18,400 nucleotides of DNA from the IMG/VR virus record IMGVR_UViG_2718218131_000010, positions 1 through 18,400 of that record. One strand, given 5' to 3'. A program made the position numbers and the translations under genes. Under the pieces are notes generated by a model. It saw nothing but the letters and a program-made list of their open reading frames with translations, had not been told where the DNA came from and did no database searches. This stretch comes from a virus. Lineage: Duplodnaviria > Heunggongvirae > Uroviricota > Caudoviricetes. Shown here in pieces: positions 3,503 to 16,876 of the stretch (positions are counted from its first letter, which is position 1; each line of letters starts with the position of its first letter).

Positions 3503-4485
3503 TCACTATTACCAAAGAGCGACTACTGACAATCAAGCAGTGGCGCGAAACATACGGACCTGGTAGCAACGTTGTACTGCCAGCAGAAGAAGCGGAAGAA
3601 CTGGCGCGGATTGCACTGGCATCACTGGAAGCAGATCCAGTTGCTTATATTTTCAAACATCCGGCCGGGAAATTATTCTGGGCTTTAACGGATGAAAGCA
3701 ATAAAGAGCAAGCTGACGTTATTCCTGTTTATGCTGCCGCGCCTGCGTCGGTTGTGCCGGATAATGCATCAGAGCCTCTTGCTTATGCTTACAAAGAGCT
3801 TACGCCTGAGATTATGCGCAACCATTTAGCTGTATTCGAGCGATATGGAATAGCCCCAAACGATAGCTCTACCACAATTCAGGCACTGCGAATCGCGCTG
3901 GATGGCATAGAGCGGAGCGGCGCCATGCTTCATGGTGCCGAACCTGTAAGCCAAACTTACAAGTTGCTAGTTAATACACCTTGCCAAGATGCGCCAGCCC
4001 ATATCTGGCTGCAAACAGCTGGAGTATGGCCAGAAGATGGCGAGTTAAGCGAATTAACGTGGTGCAGCCACAATCAGCACCATGATGACACGCTATATGT
4101 TCGAGCTGACCTTGTGAATGGCAACTATCCGGATATTCCGGATAGTTCGGTGCCAGGGCCAGGAAAGGGCGTCACCGGTGAACGTATCCGCATTAAACCG
4201 CATGTTTATCGCGAACTGGTTAACCGTCTCCACGATACAGCGATCAAGTGTGCGGGCACCCAGCAATTACGAGAAAGAATTAGCCGTGTTTTGGGCGACG
4301 TTATTACGCCAGATCATCATAAACAAGCCGAGAAAAGTGGCTTGGAAAGGTGTCACCTTGAGGCGGCATTAAACATTAAGCCGGGGCATACGCTTGGCAT
4401 TATTGATGCACTATTGGTTCATAAGATGGCCAGGGCTTTATTGCCGCTGGTGGATGCTGGCGATACAAGCGAGGGTGAAGTATGA
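3499..4485 (+). CDS. hypothetical protein (328 aa)
   Basis: ORF track; ATGA overlap with upstream stop; AAGAAGGAAACG RBS. Confidence 0.6.
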   Translation: MITITKERLLTIKQWRETYGPGSNVVLPAEEAEELARIALASLEADPVAYIFKHPAGKLFWALTDESNKEQADVIPVYAAAPASVVPDNASEPLAYAYKELTPEIMRNHLAVFERYGIAPNDSSTTIQALRIALDGIERSGAMLHGAEPVSQTYKLLVNTPCQDAPAHIWLQTAGVWPEDGELSELTWCSHNQHHDDTLYVRADLVNGNYPDIPDSSVPGPGKGVTGERIRIKPHVYRELVNRLHDTAIKCAGTQQLRERISRVLGDVITPDHHKQAEKSGLERCHLEAALNIKPGHTLGIIDALLVHKMARALLPLVDAGDTSEGEV

Positions 4486-8830: not shown

Positions 8831-8847
8831 ATTGCTCTAATGTATTG
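8831..8847 (+). promoter_or_regulatory. C1 repressor operator-like site upstream of lpa (ATTGCTCTAATGTATTG)
   Basis: 13/17 match to the P1 C1 operator consensus ATTGCTCTAATAAATTT, including the invariant ATTGCTCTAAT core. Confidence 0.6.
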
Positions 8848-9455: not shown

Positions 9456-10649
9456 GTGACCTGGGACGATCACAAGAAGAATTTTGCTCGCCTGGCGCGA
9501 GATGGTGGTTACACCATCGCACAGTATGCCGCCGAGTTTAATCTTAACCCTAATACCGCACGTCGTTATCTCCGTGCCTTCAAAGAAGACACCAGGACTA
9601 CGGACAGCCGCAAGCCAAATAAGCCAGTCAGGAAGCCACTAAAAAGCATGATCATTGATCACTCTAATGATCAACATGCAGGTGATCACATTGCGGCTGA
9701 AATAGCGGAAAAACAAAGAGTTAATGCCGTTGTCAGTGCCGCAGTCGAGAATGTGAAGCGCCAAAATAAGCGCATAAATGATCGTTCAGATGATCATGAC
9801 GTGATCACCCGCGCCCACCGGACCTTACGTGATCGCCTGGAACGCGACACCCTGGATGATGATGGTGAACGCTTTGAATTCGAAGTTGGCGATTACCTGA
9901 TAGATAACGTTGAAGCGCGGAAGGCCGCGCGCGCTATGTTGCGTCGGTCCGGGGCCGATGTTCTGGAAACCACTCTTCTGGAAAAGTCTCTTTCTCATCT
10001 CCTTATGCTGGAGAATGCCAGGGATACGTGTATTCGCCTGGTGCAGGAAATGCGCGATCAGCAAAAAGACGATGATGAAGGTACTCCGCCTGAATACCGT
10101 ATCGCGAGCATGCTAAACAGCTGTTCCGCGCAGATAAGCAGCCTGATCAACACCATTTACAGCATCCGGAATAACTATCGAAAAGAAAGCCGGGAGGCGG
10201 AAAAGCACGCTTTGTCTATGGGGCAAGCTGGCATTGTTAAGCTGGCATACGAACGAAAGCGTGAAAATAACTGGTCAGTGCTGGAAGCAGCTGAATTCAT
10301 CGAGGCGCATGGCGGGAAAGTTCCGCCCCTGATGCTGGAGCAAATCAAAGCCGATCTGCGTGCTCCTAAGACCAATACCGATGATGAGGAAAGGCAGACA
10401 GCCGTCGGCGGCCCTTCTCTTGAAGATCTGGACAAAGTTGCGCGAGAACGGGCCGCCAACCGCCGCGCCGATGCCGCATTGTGGATTGAGCAGCGTAGGG
10501 AAGAAATCGCCGATATCGTTGATACAGGCGGTTATGGAGATGTTGATACTGAAGGTGTATCAAACGACCCATGGCTGGAACAAGACCTGGACGAAGACGA
10601 GGAGGAAGACGAAGAAGTTACCCGCAAGCTATACGGGGATGATGATTAA
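9456..10649 (+). CDS. pacA: PacA, terminase small/pac-recognition subunit
   Basis: 397 aa; contains the pac site internally; acidic C-terminal tail; GTG start with AAGGAAG RBS. Confidence 0.9.
9649..9807. other. pac packaging site: 4 + 3 TGATC(A/G) hexamers with Dam GATC cores
   Basis: TGATCA at 9649, 9656, 9668, 9683 and TGATCG/TGATCA at 9779, 9791, 9802 inside pacA; matches the known bipartite P1 pac architecture. Confidence 0.85.
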
Positions 10650-12133
10650 TGGCCAGAAGTTGCGTAACGGATCCACGTTGGCGCGAGCTGGTGGCGCTAT
10701 ATCGTTATGACTGGATTGCGGCCGCTGATGTTTTGTTTGGGAAGACACCAACCTGGCAGCAGGATGAGATCATTGAGTCCACGCAGCAGGACGGCAGTTG
10801 GACAAGTGTGACCTCCGGCCATGGTACTGGTAAGTCGGATATGACGAGTATCATTGCAATACTCTTCATCATGTTTTTCCCCGGCGCTCGCGTCATTCTG
10901 GTCGCTAACAAAAGACAGCAAGTCCTTGATGGTATTTTCAAATATATAAAGAGCAATTGGGCTACTGCTGTTAGCAGATTCCCGTGGTTGTCGAAGTATT
11001 TCATTCTTACAGAAACGTCTTTTTTTGAGGTGACTGGCAAGGGTGTTTGGACAATATTGATAAAGTCCTGTCGCCCCGGAAATGAGGAGGCGTTGGCTGG
11101 TGAACACGCCGATCATCTCTTGTATATCATCGACGAAGCGTCGGGTGTGAGTGATAAAGCATTCAGTGTGATAACAGGTGCGCTGACCGGTAAGGATAAC
11201 CGTATTCTGCTTCTTTCCCAGCCTACGCGACCTTCAGGCTATTTCTACGATTCACACCACAGACTAGCTATTCGCCCGGGAAATCCTGATGGATTGTTTA
11301 CTGCGATAATACTGAATAGTGAAGAATCTCCGCTTGTAGATGCAAAATTTATACGAGCAAAACTTGCGGAGTATGGCGGTCGTGATAACCCCATGTACAT
11401 GATCAAAGTACGTGGTGAATTTCCCAAATCTCAAGATGGCTTTCTTCTTGGTCGTGATGAGGTTGAGCGGGCGACGCGGCGAAAGGTCAAGATTGCCAAA
11501 GGATGGGGCTGGGTTGCATGTGTTGACGTTGCTGGTGGCACAGGACGAGATAAGTCCGTTATTAATATCATGATGGTGTCCGGCCAGCGAAATAAACGCC
11601 GTGTAATCAACTATCGTATGCTGGAATACACAGACGTTACAGAAACGCAGTTAGCCGCCAAGATTTTCGCAGAATGTAACCCAGAACGGTTCCCGAACAT
11701 AACCATAGCTATTGATGGCGATGGCTTGGGGAAATCGACGGCTGATCTGATGTACGAACGCTATGGTATTACCGTCCAGCGTATCCGCTGGGGTAAAAAG
11801 ATGCACAGCCGTGAAGATAAAAGCCTTTATTTCGATATGCGCGCTTTCGCGAATATTCAGGCGGCAGAAGCTGTAAAATCAGGGCGTATGCGGCTTGATA
11901 AGGGGGCTGCGACTATAGAGGAAGCATCAAAGATACCGGTCGGGATAAATTCCGCAGGTCAATGGAAGGTGATGTCAAAGGAAGATATGAAGAAAAAACT
12001 CAACCTGCACTCACCGGACCATTGGGATACATATTGTTTCGCTATGTTGGCGAACTATGTACCCCAAGATGAAGTGCTTAGCGTCGAAGACGAAGCGCAG
12101 GTTGATGAAGCTCTGGCATGGCTTAATGAGTAA
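10649..12133 (+). CDS. pacB: PacB, terminase large subunit
   Basis: 494 aa; start overlaps the pacA stop (TAATG); position and size as in P1. Confidence 0.9.
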
Positions 12134-12136
12134 AAA

Positions 12137-12153
12137 CTTGCTCTAATAAATTG
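12137..12153 (+). promoter_or_regulatory. C1 operator-like site (CTTGCTCTAATAAATTG)
   Basis: 15/17 match to the C1 operator consensus; sits 4 bp after the pacB stop at the head of the antirepressor module. Confidence 0.65.
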
Positions 12154-12154
12154 T

Positions 12155-12310
12155 GTTTTTTTGGCTGCCGATGTTACATTGAACCTGAACTCTTGCGCCT
12201 TGAGGCATTTTCGGTTTATGCTTATCAGGCACCTCATTAAAACGGGTGCCGGGATTGGAACCCCGGATAATGCAAAAGGCGACACAGACGCCAAAAGCGT
12301 CTTTTTTTGT
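12155..12310 (+). ncRNA. candidate C1-controlled small RNA or leader segment ending at an intrinsic terminator
   Basis: No ORF; contains GGCUGCC (12164-12170) and a hairpin CCGGG-AUUGGAAC-CCCGG (12249-12266); ends with GACGC-CAAAA-GCGTC followed by T7 (12287-12308). Confidence 0.3.
12287..12308 (+). terminator. rho-independent terminator (GACGCCAAAAGCGTC + TTTTTTT)
   Basis: 5-bp GC stem, 5-nt loop, 7 T run; flanked by GACACA / TGTGTC extending the stem. Confidence 0.6.
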
Positions 12311-12339
12311 GTCATGCCATCGCACAGCCATACGTAGCA

Positions 12340-12493
12340 CATAGCTCCGAGATCAATGGTAGTGCTGGCTGGGCTGCCGAAAGGCAGGCCGGTTCCCTTT
12401 TGCGCCGGTAGTTCCAACCCAGTCAGTGCTACCGCCATTGAGATTGGAACCTCACGCGGTAGCTCCTAAAGTTAGCAAAAGGAGGCTGCCATT
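12340..12493 (+). promoter_or_regulatory. structured leader upstream of the icd-like ORF with anti-SD and kissing-loop elements
   Basis: Local hairpin CUGCC-GAAA-GGCAG (12373-12387); hairpin CGGTAG...CTACCG with GUUCCAAC in its loop (12405-12435); second AUUGGAACC (12443-12451); GGCUGCC overlapping the SD GGAGG (12481-12490). Confidence 0.4.
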
Positions 12494-12715
12494 ATGGCTA
12501 CTATCCCTACCCCAACTCACCCTGAATTTATCTGGCGCTTTTACTCCTGCCAGAAACGTCACTATCACTTCGTTATCGCAACAACAGAAGATGAGGCCCG
12601 CTCTCAGCTTCCTGACGCCCCATGTATTTTCTCTGCCCGTTTTTCCACTGATTCACGCAATTCTCTCAGTTACTGGTGCCTCCCTGTTAACGCTTCTGCT
12701 CAGGAGGGACTATGA
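12494..12715 (+). CDS. small ORF translationally coupled to the antirepressor (icd-like position)
   Basis: 73 aa; GGAGG 8 nt upstream; stop TGA overlaps the ant ATG (ATGA), the same coupling architecture as icd-ant in P1 immI. Confidence 0.45.
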   Translation: MATIPTPTHPEFIWRFYSCQKRHYHFVIATTEDEARSQLPDAPCIFSARFSTDSRNSLSYWCLPVNASAQEGL

Positions 12716-13824
12716 GAACGTCATTAGTCACCCGTGAAGAGATGATCGAGGCAATTGAACGGCACACTGCCTGTATCAGTACCAGGGATATACCGGGCGT
12801 TATTGCCAACTACTTCATGATCACCAAACAACTTTACCGGAGAAAGGACAAGAACGCGGTTCACCGCATCCTGCTAACCGATATCCGTGAATACCTGCTC
12901 GAACAGGGTCATCTGAATTACGCAACCGTCGCAGCCGAAGCACGCAAGGAGGCACACAGAATGAAAGCAACTAACGTTAAATCAGAAAAAATTCATGCAC
13001 CTTCAGTTCAGGAATCGGAACTGGTGGTTGTTCAGAATCAGCCGGATGAAATTCCCGTTCTGGAATGGCAGGGAGTACGTGTCGTGACAACCGAAACTCT
13101 TGCTAGAGGGTATGGGGTCGATGAAGCCAATATTCGCAACAATTTGTCTCGCAACCTTGACCGCTTTGAAGAAGGTAAGCATTACTTTCTTCTAACTGGT
13201 TTAAAATTAAGAGAATTTAAGAACAGAGTAACCGGAAGTTACTCTGTTGGTAAGAACGCCAGAAGCCTTACACTCTGGACAGAGCGCGGCGCTGCACGCA
13301 TGTCTAAGATCGTGGACACAAATGAAGCATGGGCATTCTTTGAAAAACTGGAAGACAGCTACTTCCGGCAAAAAGAACAGCAACCGGTTGCAATCCCCCA
13401 GACGCTTCCAGAAGCTCTGCGCCTGGCTGCCGAACTGGCTGAACAAAAGCAGCTTCTGGAACAGAAAGCCCACCAGCTAAATCAGCAGCTGGTGGCCGCC
13501 GCTCCTAAAGTCGATTTTGCCGACCGGGTATCAGTAGCTAAAGGGATCCTGATTGGGAATTTTGCAAAGGTTGTTGGACTTAAGCAAAACGCGCTGTTTG
13601 CCTGGTTACGGGAGAACGGCATCCTGATAGCGTCCGGTGGACGTAAAAATGTGCCGTTCCAGCAGTACATCAATGCGGGGTATTTCACGGTGAAAGAAGT
13701 GGTGCTGGATGATGAAGATGGCTACCAGATACGGTTGACGCCTCAATTAACGGGTAAAGGCCAGCAGTGGTTGACGCGTAAACTGCTCGATGCTGGCTTG
13801 TTAAAACCGGTGGCGGCTGAATAA
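12712..13824 (+). CDS. phage antirepressor (Ant-like; ORF6N N-terminal and KilA-C/ANT C-terminal domains)
   Basis: 370 aa; VRVVTTETLARGYGVDEANIRNNLSRNLDRFEEGKHYF...LTLWTERGAARMSKIVDTNEAWAFFEKL (ORF6N-like) and FAKVVGLKQNALFAWLRENGIL...VPFQQYINAGYFTVKE (KilA-C/ANT-like). Confidence 0.75.
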   Translation: MRTSLVTREEMIEAIERHTACISTRDIPGVIANYFMITKQLYRRKDKNAVHRILLTDIREYLLEQGHLNYATVAAEARKEAHRMKATNVKSEKIHAPSVQESELVVVQNQPDEIPVLEWQGVRVVTTETLARGYGVDEANIRNNLSRNLDRFEEGKHYFLLTGLKLREFKNRVTGSYSVGKNARSLTLWTERGAARMSKIVDTNEAWAFFEKLEDSYFRQKEQQPVAIPQTLPEALRLAAELAEQKQLLEQKAHQLNQQLVAAAPKVDFADRVSVAKGILIGNFAKVVGLKQNALFAWLRENGILIASGGRKNVPFQQYINAGYFTVKEVVLDDEDGYQIRLTPQLTGKGQQWLTRKLLDAGLLKPVAAE

Positions 13825-13833
13825 TGGAAGAAT

Positions 13834-13862
13834 GCCCGGTTGATGCCGGGCATAATTTATTG
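13834..13862. terminator. convergent terminator hairpin between ant-like gene and c1
   Basis: GCCCGG-TTGATG-CCGGGC followed by ATAATTTATT; overlaps the c1 stop codon region. Confidence 0.5.
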
Positions 13863-14708
13863 CGCGCTTTCGGGGTTGTCGTTTACTGGCTGCCCCTTCT
13901 TGGTTTTACGGCTGCGCGTAACTGATGCGGCTGACTTAACCTTTTTCTCTTCGCGAGTGATGGCAATTTGTTTTTTTACATTTTCAATATCTGCCAGGCG
14001 ATATATTTTTGCTTGCGGCCAGCGGTCGCAGATGATCGGTTCTATGGAGTCATAAAGGCTAAATTTTGCTTTTTCGAATTCACCGTTGATGATAATTCCA
14101 TCACGGAGAGTTTCATCGCAGATAAACACGCCACACAGTGGCACATGGTAACTAACTGATTTACCATCATTGTAGTTAGGGCTACTGGAAATGTAGTGGA
14201 CGCGCAGCATTGTTTCGCTAAAGCCGTGTACGCGCATACGGAATTTTTCATCCTCCGGGTACTGCTTCATTAGCTCTTTTGTTGCTTCCAGGTTCTCTAT
14301 GTATTTCGCACTGTGCTCATTGATCCCCGCGCTTTTTTGGATGCGAATGTCCTTATCAATCAGATGAATAATGCGGCCAGCGGTCATGTTGACGCTGTTC
14401 ACAGCTTCTGTCTGATAAGTTGTAACCTTACGCACACCGCGAAGGATGTTAGGCACAGGATATAAAATAGTCTTTGGGATATTGAGATCTGGGTACTGTT
14501 CCAGTTCCCGCGCCATTAAAGTCCATTTATCAATTTCTGCCTGAATGCTGTCCGTTTCTTTGAACGGCAGAACGACAACCGGGCGTACAGGACGACCGTC
14601 GCTGGCGGCATCAACGTGTTGGGCGCGTGCAACAGCTTTTTTTAGAAAGAGATCCCTGAAGCTGACGAACTCCTGGTACAGTTGTTCGCCGTAGACATAA
14701 TTTATCAT
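13857..14708 (-). CDS. c1: C1 repressor of lysogeny
   Basis: 283 aa MINYVYGEQLYQEFVSFRDLFLKK... matches P1 C1 as recalled; multiple C1 operators in the vicinity. Confidence 0.95.
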   Translation of the reverse strand: MINYVYGEQLYQEFVSFRDLFLKKAVARAQHVDAASDGRPVRPVVVLPFKETDSIQAEIDKWTLMARELEQYPDLNIPKTILYPVPNILRGVRKVTTYQTEAVNSVNMTAGRIIHLIDKDIRIQKSAGINEHSAKYIENLEATKELMKQYPEDEKFRMRVHGFSETMLRVHYISSSPNYNDGKSVSYHVPLCGVFICDETLRDGIIINGEFEKAKFSLYDSIEPIICDRWPQAKIYRLADIENVKKQIAITREEKKVKSAASVTRSRKTKKGQPVNDNPESAQ

Positions 14709-14802: not shown

Positions 14803-14819
14803 AGATTTATTAGTGCATT
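14803..14819 (-). promoter_or_regulatory. C1 operator-like site between coi and c1
   Basis: Minus-strand AATGCACTAATAAATCT, 14/17 match to the consensus. Confidence 0.5.
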
Positions 14820-14821
14820 TA

Positions 14822-15028
14822 TTATGAGTCTGGCTGGTTAGTGGTCATGAGATATTCAATTGTGTCAGTGAGATCATCTAGGTCGTCGGGGGTGATACGG
14901 TACTCCTGATTGGATATCTTTGAGTAGTGTTCAGCAATGGCGCGAGCAGCGTCGGTTTCGGTGGGATCTACAGATAAAGCGTTAGAGCAATGTCTAACGT
15001 CGTCGATAGTTGGTGGAATGAAAGCCAT
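14822..15028 (-). CDS. coi: Coi, C1 inactivator
   Basis: 68-aa acidic ORF immediately upstream of c1 on the same strand, as in P1 immC. Confidence 0.8.
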   Translation of the reverse strand: MAFIPPTIDDVRHCSNALSVDPTETDAARAIAEHYSKISNQEYRITPDDLDDLTDTIEYLMTTNQPDS

Positions 15029-15250: not shown

Positions 15251-15267
15251 TAATTTATTAGAGCAAT
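15251..15267 (-). promoter_or_regulatory. C1 operator (Op99-type), minus orientation
   Basis: Reverse complement ATTGCTCTAATAAATTA, 16/17 match. Confidence 0.65.
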
Positions 15268-15333: not shown

Positions 15334-15350
15334 ATTGCTCTAATGATTCT
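15334..15350 (+). promoter_or_regulatory. C1 operator-like site (ATTGCTCTAATGATTCT)
   Basis: 14/17 match with intact ATTGCTCTAAT core; lies in the imcA/imcB control region between coi and loxP. Confidence 0.55.
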
Positions 15351-15844: not shown

Positions 15845-16876
15845 ATGTCCAATTTACTGACCGTACACCAAAATTTGCCTGCATTACCGGTCGATGCAAC
15901 GAGTGATGAGGTTCGCAAGAACCTGATGGACATGTTCAGGGATCGCCAGGCGTTTTCTGAGCATACCTGGAAAATGCTTCTGTCCGTTTGCCGGTCGTGG
16001 GCGGCATGGTGCAAGTTGAATAACCGGAAATGGTTTCCCGCAGAACCTGAAGATGTTCGCGATTATCTTCTATATCTTCAGGCGCGCGGTCTGGCAGTAA
16101 AAACTATCCAGCAACATTTGGGCCAGCTAAACATGCTTCATCGTCGGTCCGGGCTGCCACGACCAAGTGACAGCAATGCTGTTTCACTGGTCATGCGGCG
16201 GATCCGAAAAGAAAACGTTGATGCCGGTGAACGTGCAAAACAGGCACTGGCGTTCGAACGCACTGATTTCGACCAGGTTCGTTCACTCATAGAAAATAGC
16301 GATCGCTGCCAGGATATACGTAATCTGGCATTTCTGGGGATTGCTTATAACACCCTGTTACGTATAGCCGAAATTGCCAGGATCAGGGTCAAAGATATCT
16401 CACGTACTGACGGTGGGAGAATGTTAATCCATATTGGCAGAACGAAAACGCTGGTTAGCACCGCAGGTGTAGAGAAGGCACTTAGCCTGGGGGTAACTAA
16501 ACTGGTCGAGCGATGGATTTCTGTCTCTGGTGTAGCTGATGATCCGAATAACTACCTGTTTTGCCGCGTCAGAAAAAATGGTGTTGCCTCGCCATCATCC
16601 ACCAGCCAGCTATCAACTCGCGCCCTGGAAGGGATTTTTGAAGCAACTCACCGATTGATTTACGGAGCTAAGGATGACTCTGGCCAGAGGTACCTGGCCT
16701 GGTCTGGACACAGTGCCCGTGTCGGAGCCGCGCGAGATATGGCCCGCGCCGGAGTTTCAATACCGGAGATCATGCAAGCTGGTGGCTGGACCAACGTAAA
16801 TATTGTCATGAACTATATCCGTAACCTGGATAGTGAAACAGGGGCAATGGTGCGCCTGCTGGAAGATGGCGATTAG
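15845..16876 (+). CDS. cre: Cre tyrosine recombinase
   Basis: 343 aa MSNLLTVHQNLPALPVDATSDEVRKNLMDMFRDRQAFSEHTWKMLLSVCRSWAAWCKLNNRKWFPAEPEDVRDYLLYLQARGLAVKTIQQHL... matches Cre; begins 418 bp after loxP. Confidence 0.98.
   Translation: MSNLLTVHQNLPALPVDATSDEVRKNLMDMFRDRQAFSEHTWKMLLSVCRSWAAWCKLNNRKWFPAEPEDVRDYLLYLQARGLAVKTIQQHLGQLNMLHRRSGLPRPSDSNAVSLVMRRIRKENVDAGERAKQALAFERTDFDQVRSLIENSDRCQDIRNLAFLGIAYNTLLRIAEIARIRVKDISRTDGGRMLIHIGRTKTLVSTAGVEKALSLGVTKLVERWISVSGVADDPNNYLFCRVRKNGVASPSSTSQLSTRALEGIFEATHRLIYGAKDDSGQRYLAWSGHSARVGAARDMARAGVSIPEIMQAGGWTNVNIVMNYIRNLDSETGAMVRLLEDGD

Follow-up and report, generated by a model that had tools for sequence, protein, structure and literature searches.

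The window analysed in this study, a stretch of DNA of 18,400 nucleotides, belongs to a P1-like phage-plasmid: sequence comparison gave 93–100% identity to P1-like phages (genus Punavirus) and IncY phage-plasmids. The features discussed below are collected in Table 1. The gene order is pacA, pacB, an insert of 1.7 kb, c1, coi and cre. pacB is collinear with P1 pacB. The C1 protein is identical to P1 C1.100 at 282 of its 283 residues (99%), the single difference being residue 193. This identity, with coi and the upstream operators conserved, assigns the region to immC. When up to three mismatches were allowed, six C1 operator-like sites were found in the window (0.07 expected). The sites at 14803, 15251 and 15334 correspond to the known immC operators, and the site at 11345 lies inside pacB.

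Table 1 Features of the window between pacA and cre, with other C1 operator-like sites
Feature	Position	Strand	Description
C1 operator-like sites elsewhere in the window	8831–8847, 11345–11361, 14803–14819, 15251–15267, 15334–15350		1–3 mismatches
pacA	9456–10649
pacB	10649–12133	+	Terminase subunit; 494-aa ORF; stop codon 12131–12133; left flank of the cassette
Accessory immI-type cassette	12134–13856	+	About 1.72 kb; replaces the 24-nt pacB-c1 spacer of P1
C1 operator-like site	12137–12153	+	CTTGCTCTAATAAATTG; 15/17 match to consensus; 3 nt past the pacB stop; left cassette edge
isrK-like leader RNA	12229–12307	+	Rfam RF01394, 62.4 bits (gathering score 50); own strong terminator at 12286–12302, then T7
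a1 (C4 target copy in leader)	12255–12261	+	TTGGAAC; complementary to C4
b1 (C4 target copy in leader)	12272–12279	+	GCAAAAGG; complementary to C4
C4 antisense RNA gene	12352–12439	+	Rfam RF01695, 76.7 bits (gathering score 45), full length
C4 recognition loop b′	12396–12403		CCTTTTGC
C4 recognition loop a′	12411–12417		GTTCCAA
a2 (C4 target site downstream of c4)	12444–12450	+	TTGGAAC; P1-like a2/b2 spacing
b2 (C4 target site downstream of c4)	12475–12482	+	GCAAAAGG; P1-like a2/b2 spacing
icd-like gene	12494–12715	+	73 aa; overlaps the ant start at 12712–12715; RefSeq: Icd-like protein
ant, antirepressor gene	12712–13824	+	370 aa; Pfam PF10543 (ORF6N) 2.5e-18, PF03374 (ANT/KilAC) 1.5e-31
Perfect 8-bp GC-rich hairpin	13832–13853	.	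ATGCCCGG-ttgatg-CCGGGCAT; cassette 3′ end; candidate partial bidirectional terminator and 3′-end stabiliser
T-rich tail of hairpin	13854–13861	+	AATTTATT; c1 stop codon (13857–13859) and cassette/backbone junction lie within it
c1	13857–14708	−	Primary repressor of P1-type phages; 283 aa; stop TAA, read as 'tta' at 13857–13859
coi	14822–15028	−
cre	15845–16876

In P1, the end of pacB and c1 are separated by 24 nt. P1, P7, SJ46 and phiW39 possess neither the cassette nor the hairpin described below, and their pacB and c1 genes converge across the 24-nt spacer ctcattaaccatgccggatggaaa. The cassette is present in RCS47, JL22, vB_EcoM-673R5, phi456 (partial) and 307 PLSDB plasmids, whereas the P1-type junction is kept in about 314 PLSDB records. 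Thus, the presence of the cassette is polymorphic, at roughly half and half. On the right-hand side, homology to P1 begins again at 13858, in the c1 stop codon, which is CTA (TAG) in P1 and TTA (TAA) in the window. Therefore, the right cassette junction lies within the c1 stop codon, and the whole c1 3′ untranslated region would be the putative cassette terminator read backwards.

The cassette has all sequence elements of a P1 immI operon

The operator-like site at the left edge of the cassette aligns with P1 Op51/Oc4, and hexamers resembling P51a and P51b align as well. This site appears to overlap the −35 element of the P51a-like promoter (TTGTGT near 12151; −10 TACATT near 12175). Downstream, the sites a1 and a2 are exact complements of the a′ loop of the C4 RNA, the sites b1 and b2 are exact complements of the b′ loop, and the layout of a1/b1 and a2/b2 is as annotated in P1. 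The recognition loops themselves differ from those of P1, which are TCACTAAC (b′) and CTGTCAA (a′). The b2 site overlaps the icd ribosome-binding site AAGGAGG.

Because exact copies of the C4 targets are located inside the isrK element, this element occupies the a1/b1 leader position. In other words, the Rfam isrK element of the cassette takes the place of the a1/b1 leader of P1 (RF03163, c4-a1b1), and the families RF01394 and RF03163 seem to be two variants of a single upstream component of C4 operons. Rfam assigned the isrK leader type to the pacB-side cassettes of the window and of loci L013, L052 and L084, and the c4-a1b1 type to P1 immI and to L009, L036, L073 and L081. Both leader types co-occur in single contigs, with different C4 loops. 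The pacB-side cassette of L052 contains, at 2553–2669, a match to the ALIL pseudoknot (a frameshift element of the IS3 family; 121 bits), and an insertion sequence lies between C4 and ant in that contig.

P1-like contigs have two or three ant modules, each at its own locus. We aligned the C4 loop alleles of the window, L013, L052, L084, L018, L009, L073, L081, L036 and P1. Across P1-like modules there are at least six allele combinations, for example CCCTTTTGCG/GTTCCAAC, ACCTTGGACG/AGGCCAAC, CACTAACG/CTGTCAAC and CGTAAGTG/CTGCTAAC. Single contigs with two or three modules of different C4 alleles suggest stacked heteroimmunity specificities.

It should be mentioned that public annotation hides this anatomy. 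The RNA genes of the cassette are missing from RefSeq, and a 37-aa 'ash family protein' CDS (WP_075362742.1; NZ_CP148508.1, L006 1757–1870; about 12356–12469 in the window) is placed almost exactly over the C4 gene. This CDS is probably a mis-annotated RNA gene.

The initial annotation had called the two facing genes ant-like and c1 from the letters of the window, and both identities were borne out: C1 is almost that of P1, and the product of the plus-strand gene carries ORF6N and ANT/KilAC domains and is 57% identical overall to P1 Ant1. The identity to Ant1 exceeds 90% over the last ~145 aa, and the N-terminal ~100 aa are conserved. The middle third (about aa 100–225, the ORF6N domain) is unrelated to that of P1 Ant1; with both ends conserved, this is a domain swap. 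As its last ~145 aa are more than 90% identical to P1 Ant1/2, the cassette Ant is predicted to inactivate C1. The cassette Icd is identical to P1 Icd at 53 of 66 aligned residues (80%).

The stem-loop between ant and c1 belongs to the ant module

The stop codons of ant (TAA, 13822–13824) and c1 face each other across a spacer of 32 nt (13825–13856), the distance given in the initial annotation. The inverted repeat reported there is real and is longer than first stated. Its arms (13832–13839 and 13846–13853) are complementary at all eight positions, six of the pairs are GC, and the loop has 6 nt. The hairpin starts 7 nt past the ant stop and lies 3 nt from the c1 stop, a position suitable for a terminator. 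It had also been proposed that the hairpin overlaps the c1 stop codon. This proved incorrect, since the stem ends at 13853, 3 nt short of the stop; the codon is covered only by the T-rich tail and by a weak, G·U-containing outer helix, which is predicted for the plus-strand RNA only.

The RNA free energy of the hairpin is −16.2 kcal/mol on the plus strand and −14.1 kcal/mol on the minus strand, and the folding z-scores of the 51 nt around it are −2.5 and −3.35. The corresponding P1 spacer region has no stable hairpin (−7 and −3.9 kcal/mol; z-scores of −0.97 and +1.34). The window contains four distinct perfect hairpins of at least 8 bp with at least 5 GC, against 0.5 expected from first-order Markov simulations (8-fold enrichment). 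From these counts, the chance of such a hairpin in a given 32-nt spacer is about 0.001. A perfect 11-bp palindrome, AACTATCCGGA-TAT-TCCGGATAGTT, is located at 4123–4147 within a plus-strand ORF and has no T-tract.

All 56 pacB-cassette-c1 sequences are identical over 13819–13898, including the hairpin, and such invariant sequences offer no compensatory changes as evidence from covariation. Outside this set, the only variants observed were a 2-nt insertion in the loop (L036) and loss of the last T (L057). No Rfam match to isrJ or another 3′ RNA element was obtained over 13650–14000 up to E = 1. An exact-match scan for the hairpin, with one genome per species, returned four contigs that are P1-like and one from an unrelated Bacteroidales genome, and thus did not point to a family of dispersed repeats. 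In this Bacteroidales metagenome-assembled genome from sheep reticulum (L088, 6267–6292), the identical 26-nt hairpin plus tail, ATGCCCGGTTGATGCCGGGCATAATT, follows an unrelated ORF in intergenic DNA that is AT-rich; the copy may be a coincidence or a shared terminator. A promoter-like match at 13798–13825 (plus strand), which would fire through the hairpin, was rejected: there are 4 such matches against 4.5 expected.

We surveyed the context of the hairpin in 78 IMG/VR loci encoding Ant relatives. The identical stem-loop follows the ant stop in four downstream contexts. In 49 loci c1 is downstream, the stem-loop is located 7–8 nt past the ant stop, and ant is 59–100% identical to that of the window. 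In the other contexts, the downstream sequence is aatttcttcaggaggtgg (L014, L080, L081 and L084), gattaaatgtctcttc (L009, L041 and L036) or aaagggcggg (L057). The breakpoints between the contexts are 0–8 nt past the stem, and CATAATTT is common to the window and to loci where c1 is not downstream. In L084 the hairpin is followed by a convergent baseplate-like operon, and in L009 by co-directional HTH and DUF3944 genes. Because the same hairpin follows ant in four contexts, it is part of the ant module by this comparison and does not belong to c1. Thus, the hairpin, which had been described as shared by the two genes, is not shared by origin: it arrives with the ant cassette, and P1, P7, SJ46 and phiW39 lack it.

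Other ant alleles end in other hairpins. In P1 immI, the GC hairpin CCTGCCAG-caaa-CTGGCAGG is found at the same position after ant, and L018-type ant loci end in GGCGGCC-tttc-GGCCGCC, again at the same position. These different GC hairpins support a conserved role for the stem-loop after ant, whatever its sequence.

Predicted termination and the role of the hairpin

The T-tract of the hairpin on the plus strand is AAUUUAUU (5/8), and the hairpin passes a simple terminator scan on this strand; on the minus strand the tract is UCUUCCAU (4/8). The weighted T score is 1.15 (plus) and 2.06 (minus), as compared with 4.7 for the isrK terminator. A d'Aubenton-Carafa-type discriminant, checked only on internal controls (isrK terminator, d = +10; P1 ant hairpin, d = +2 and +55), was negative on both strands (−25 on the plus strand and −17.5 on the minus strand). 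Among the perfect hairpins in the whole window, the hairpin nevertheless ranks best on the minus strand and third best on the plus strand. Since the T-tracts are weak on both strands, termination is probably partial both ways, and some read-through is plausible in either direction. The hairpin thus probably serves as a partial terminator in both directions and as a stem-loop that protects 3′ ends.

The isrK-like terminator is the sole hairpin in the window with a positive score, and thus the only canonical intrinsic terminator in the 18.4 kb. It is located 153 nt past pacB and therefore may also end the late pacAB transcript. The P1 ant hairpin (L007 2445–2475, after ant1/2) reaches d = +55 in the reverse orientation, where it has a T7 tail, and d = +2 in the ant orientation. 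The antisense kilA transcript (PaskilA) has its annotated start ~170 nt away. Because it is stronger in reverse and near this start, the P1 hairpin may chiefly terminate that antisense RNA.

We consider it likely that the hairpin of the window is the 3′-terminal stem-loop of an accessory immI-type operon, which replaced the 24-nt spacer of the convergent pacB and c1 genes. The elements of this operon are, in order, C1 operator, putative promoters, isrK-like leader with a1/b1, C4 antisense RNA, a2/b2, icd and ant. The hairpin would act as a Rho-independent terminator and as a 3′-exonuclease barrier for the icd-ant transcript and, being palindromic, would likewise affect c1 transcripts that come from the opposite side. 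The minus-strand RNA past the hairpin is C-rich and G-poor (C/G ~2 over roughly 300 nt). Because c1 read-through RNA would be untranslated and has this composition, it is a probable Rho substrate and would probably be terminated by Rho in the next few hundred nucleotides. An internal hairpin at 13470–13495 was considered as a back-up terminator for c1 read-through and was rejected, as it scores poorly (d = −35). The net role of the hairpin would be insulation between two adjacent units and not designed coupling. Judged by its sequence, it is an ordinary end-of-operon stem-loop, and nothing marks it as a special regulatory device.

The initial annotation had read the same arrangement as a layer of transcriptional interference in the lysis-lysogeny switch: a leaky hairpin would allow read-through between ant and c1, and the resulting antisense RNA or collision of RNA polymerases would act in cis. 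The weak U-tracts on both strands make read-through plausible, ant and c1 are only 32 nt apart, and c1 is transcribed in lysogens from C1-autoregulated promoters, which counts in favour of this idea. However, the same hairpin ends ant where there is no convergent gene (L009) and beside unrelated genes, and c1 and pacB converge without any hairpin in the phages that lack the cassette. Moreover, about half of the P1-like plasmids do not possess the cassette, and thus the ant/c1 arrangement is dispensable. For these reasons, we argue that ant came to converge with c1 as a by-product of where the cassette inserted, the convergence being inherited from pacB and c1, and that the hairpin insulates the two units. 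The composition of the minus-strand RNA, which favours Rho termination of c1 read-through, also speaks against interference, as do the control elements that ant already has upstream, namely the C1 operator-like site and the C4 antisense RNA with its a/b sites. The comparative evidence, in which the hairpin moves with ant and the convergence of pacB and c1 is the older arrangement, therefore lends no support to an evolved interference layer, and we regard such a layer as rather unlikely. In a fuller version, the cassette would be a second, heterospecific immI module on the P1 immunity circuit, and its immediate contact with c1 would be of functional importance. In lysogens, constitutive transcription of c1 would pass the weak hairpin and proceed antisense into ant, and induced transcription of ant would proceed antisense into c1. 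If this were true, a cis-acting bistable link would be added on top of the C4 and C1 controls; we think this quite improbable.

The shared 3′ ends might also mean that the hairpin is mainly a boundary or recombination sequence for exchange of ant cassettes, its terminator activity being secondary. The four downstream contexts diverge 0–8 nt from the stem, ant alleles of 59–100% identity share their 3′ end and hairpin, two or three ant modules occur in different places of P1-like contigs, and the right arm of the hairpin matches the P1 spacer over 7 nt (ATGCCGG). However, breakpoints at module ends are expected for any sequence from selection for viable recombinants, the ATGCCGG match has a chance probability of ~0.03 by our own estimate, and the real junction with the P1 backbone is the c1 stop codon and not ATGCCGG. 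In addition, the cassette has neither a recombinase gene nor a repeated site at its flanks, and its left end has no copy of the hairpin. We therefore hold this explanation to be unlikely. Derivation of the hairpin from the P1 spacer via ATGCCGG was rejected, because contexts in which the P1 spacer was never present also possess the right arm, and the true junction is the c1 stop codon. That the hairpin is a chance palindrome without function is very improbable. The lack of compensatory changes in the 56 invariant sequences and the sub-threshold terminator score would be compatible with this possibility, but the probability of ~0.001 for such a hairpin in a given 32-nt spacer, its retention across four contexts and the unrelated GC hairpins at the equivalent place after other ant alleles argue against it.

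Comparison with known systems

The hairpin alone matters little, being yet another terminator-like stem-loop where two genes converge. As in intrinsic terminators between such genes, a GC-rich perfect stem-loop is located a few nucleotides past two stop codons that face each other. It is flanked by partly A-rich sequence upstream and partly T-rich sequence downstream, so that a hairpin followed by some U is presented on either strand, as in bidirectional terminators. Unlike in these terminators, both strands have short, interrupted U-tracts and a negative score in the classical discriminant.

The cassette is the more interesting object, that is, a second C4-icd-ant module, which abuts c1 and whose C4 specificity differs from that of P1 immI. 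C4 specificity sets the heteroimmunity of P1 and P7. Therefore, stacked modules could shape which P1-like phage-plasmids, many of which carry resistance genes, coexist or displace each other.

The presence of a cassette between pacB and c1 is already known; its RNA anatomy and differing C4 specificity are the more interesting part. An ant insertion between pacB and c1 has been reported in pTZ20_1P and RCS47, together with icd-ant homologues at a further locus in pSvP1 (Venturini et al. 2019, PMC6906374). The insertion is the same cassette at the same site, and that of RCS47 is 90–95% identical and has the identical hairpin. The RNAs, operator and terminator are not described in that report, and we found no description of them.

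In the Gifsy-1 isrK-orf45-anrP-isrJ locus of Salmonella (Hershko-Shalev et al. 2016, PMC4825925), as in the cassette, an isrK-family RNA with its own leaky terminator precedes a small ORF and an antirepressor-like gene. In contrast to Gifsy-1, the cassette has a C4 RNA between isrK and the small ORF, the small ORF is icd-like, no isrJ match follows ant in the window, and the presumed target repressor is P1 C1. This likeness is known at the level of sequence.

A further comparison is with the immI operon of P1 and P7. The cassette lies between pacB and c1, whereas immI of P1 and P7 lies between sim and kilA. The cassette leader is of the isrK type (RF01394) and the P1 leader of the c4-a1b1 type (RF03163). 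The C4 loops of the cassette are also not those of P1, an ORF6N domain is located in the middle of Ant, and the sequence of the terminal hairpin is another one. Nevertheless, all elements of the immI operon (Op51, P51a/b, a1 b1, c4, a2 b2, icd and ant1/2) have counterparts in the cassette in the same order, and in both cases a GC hairpin follows ant.
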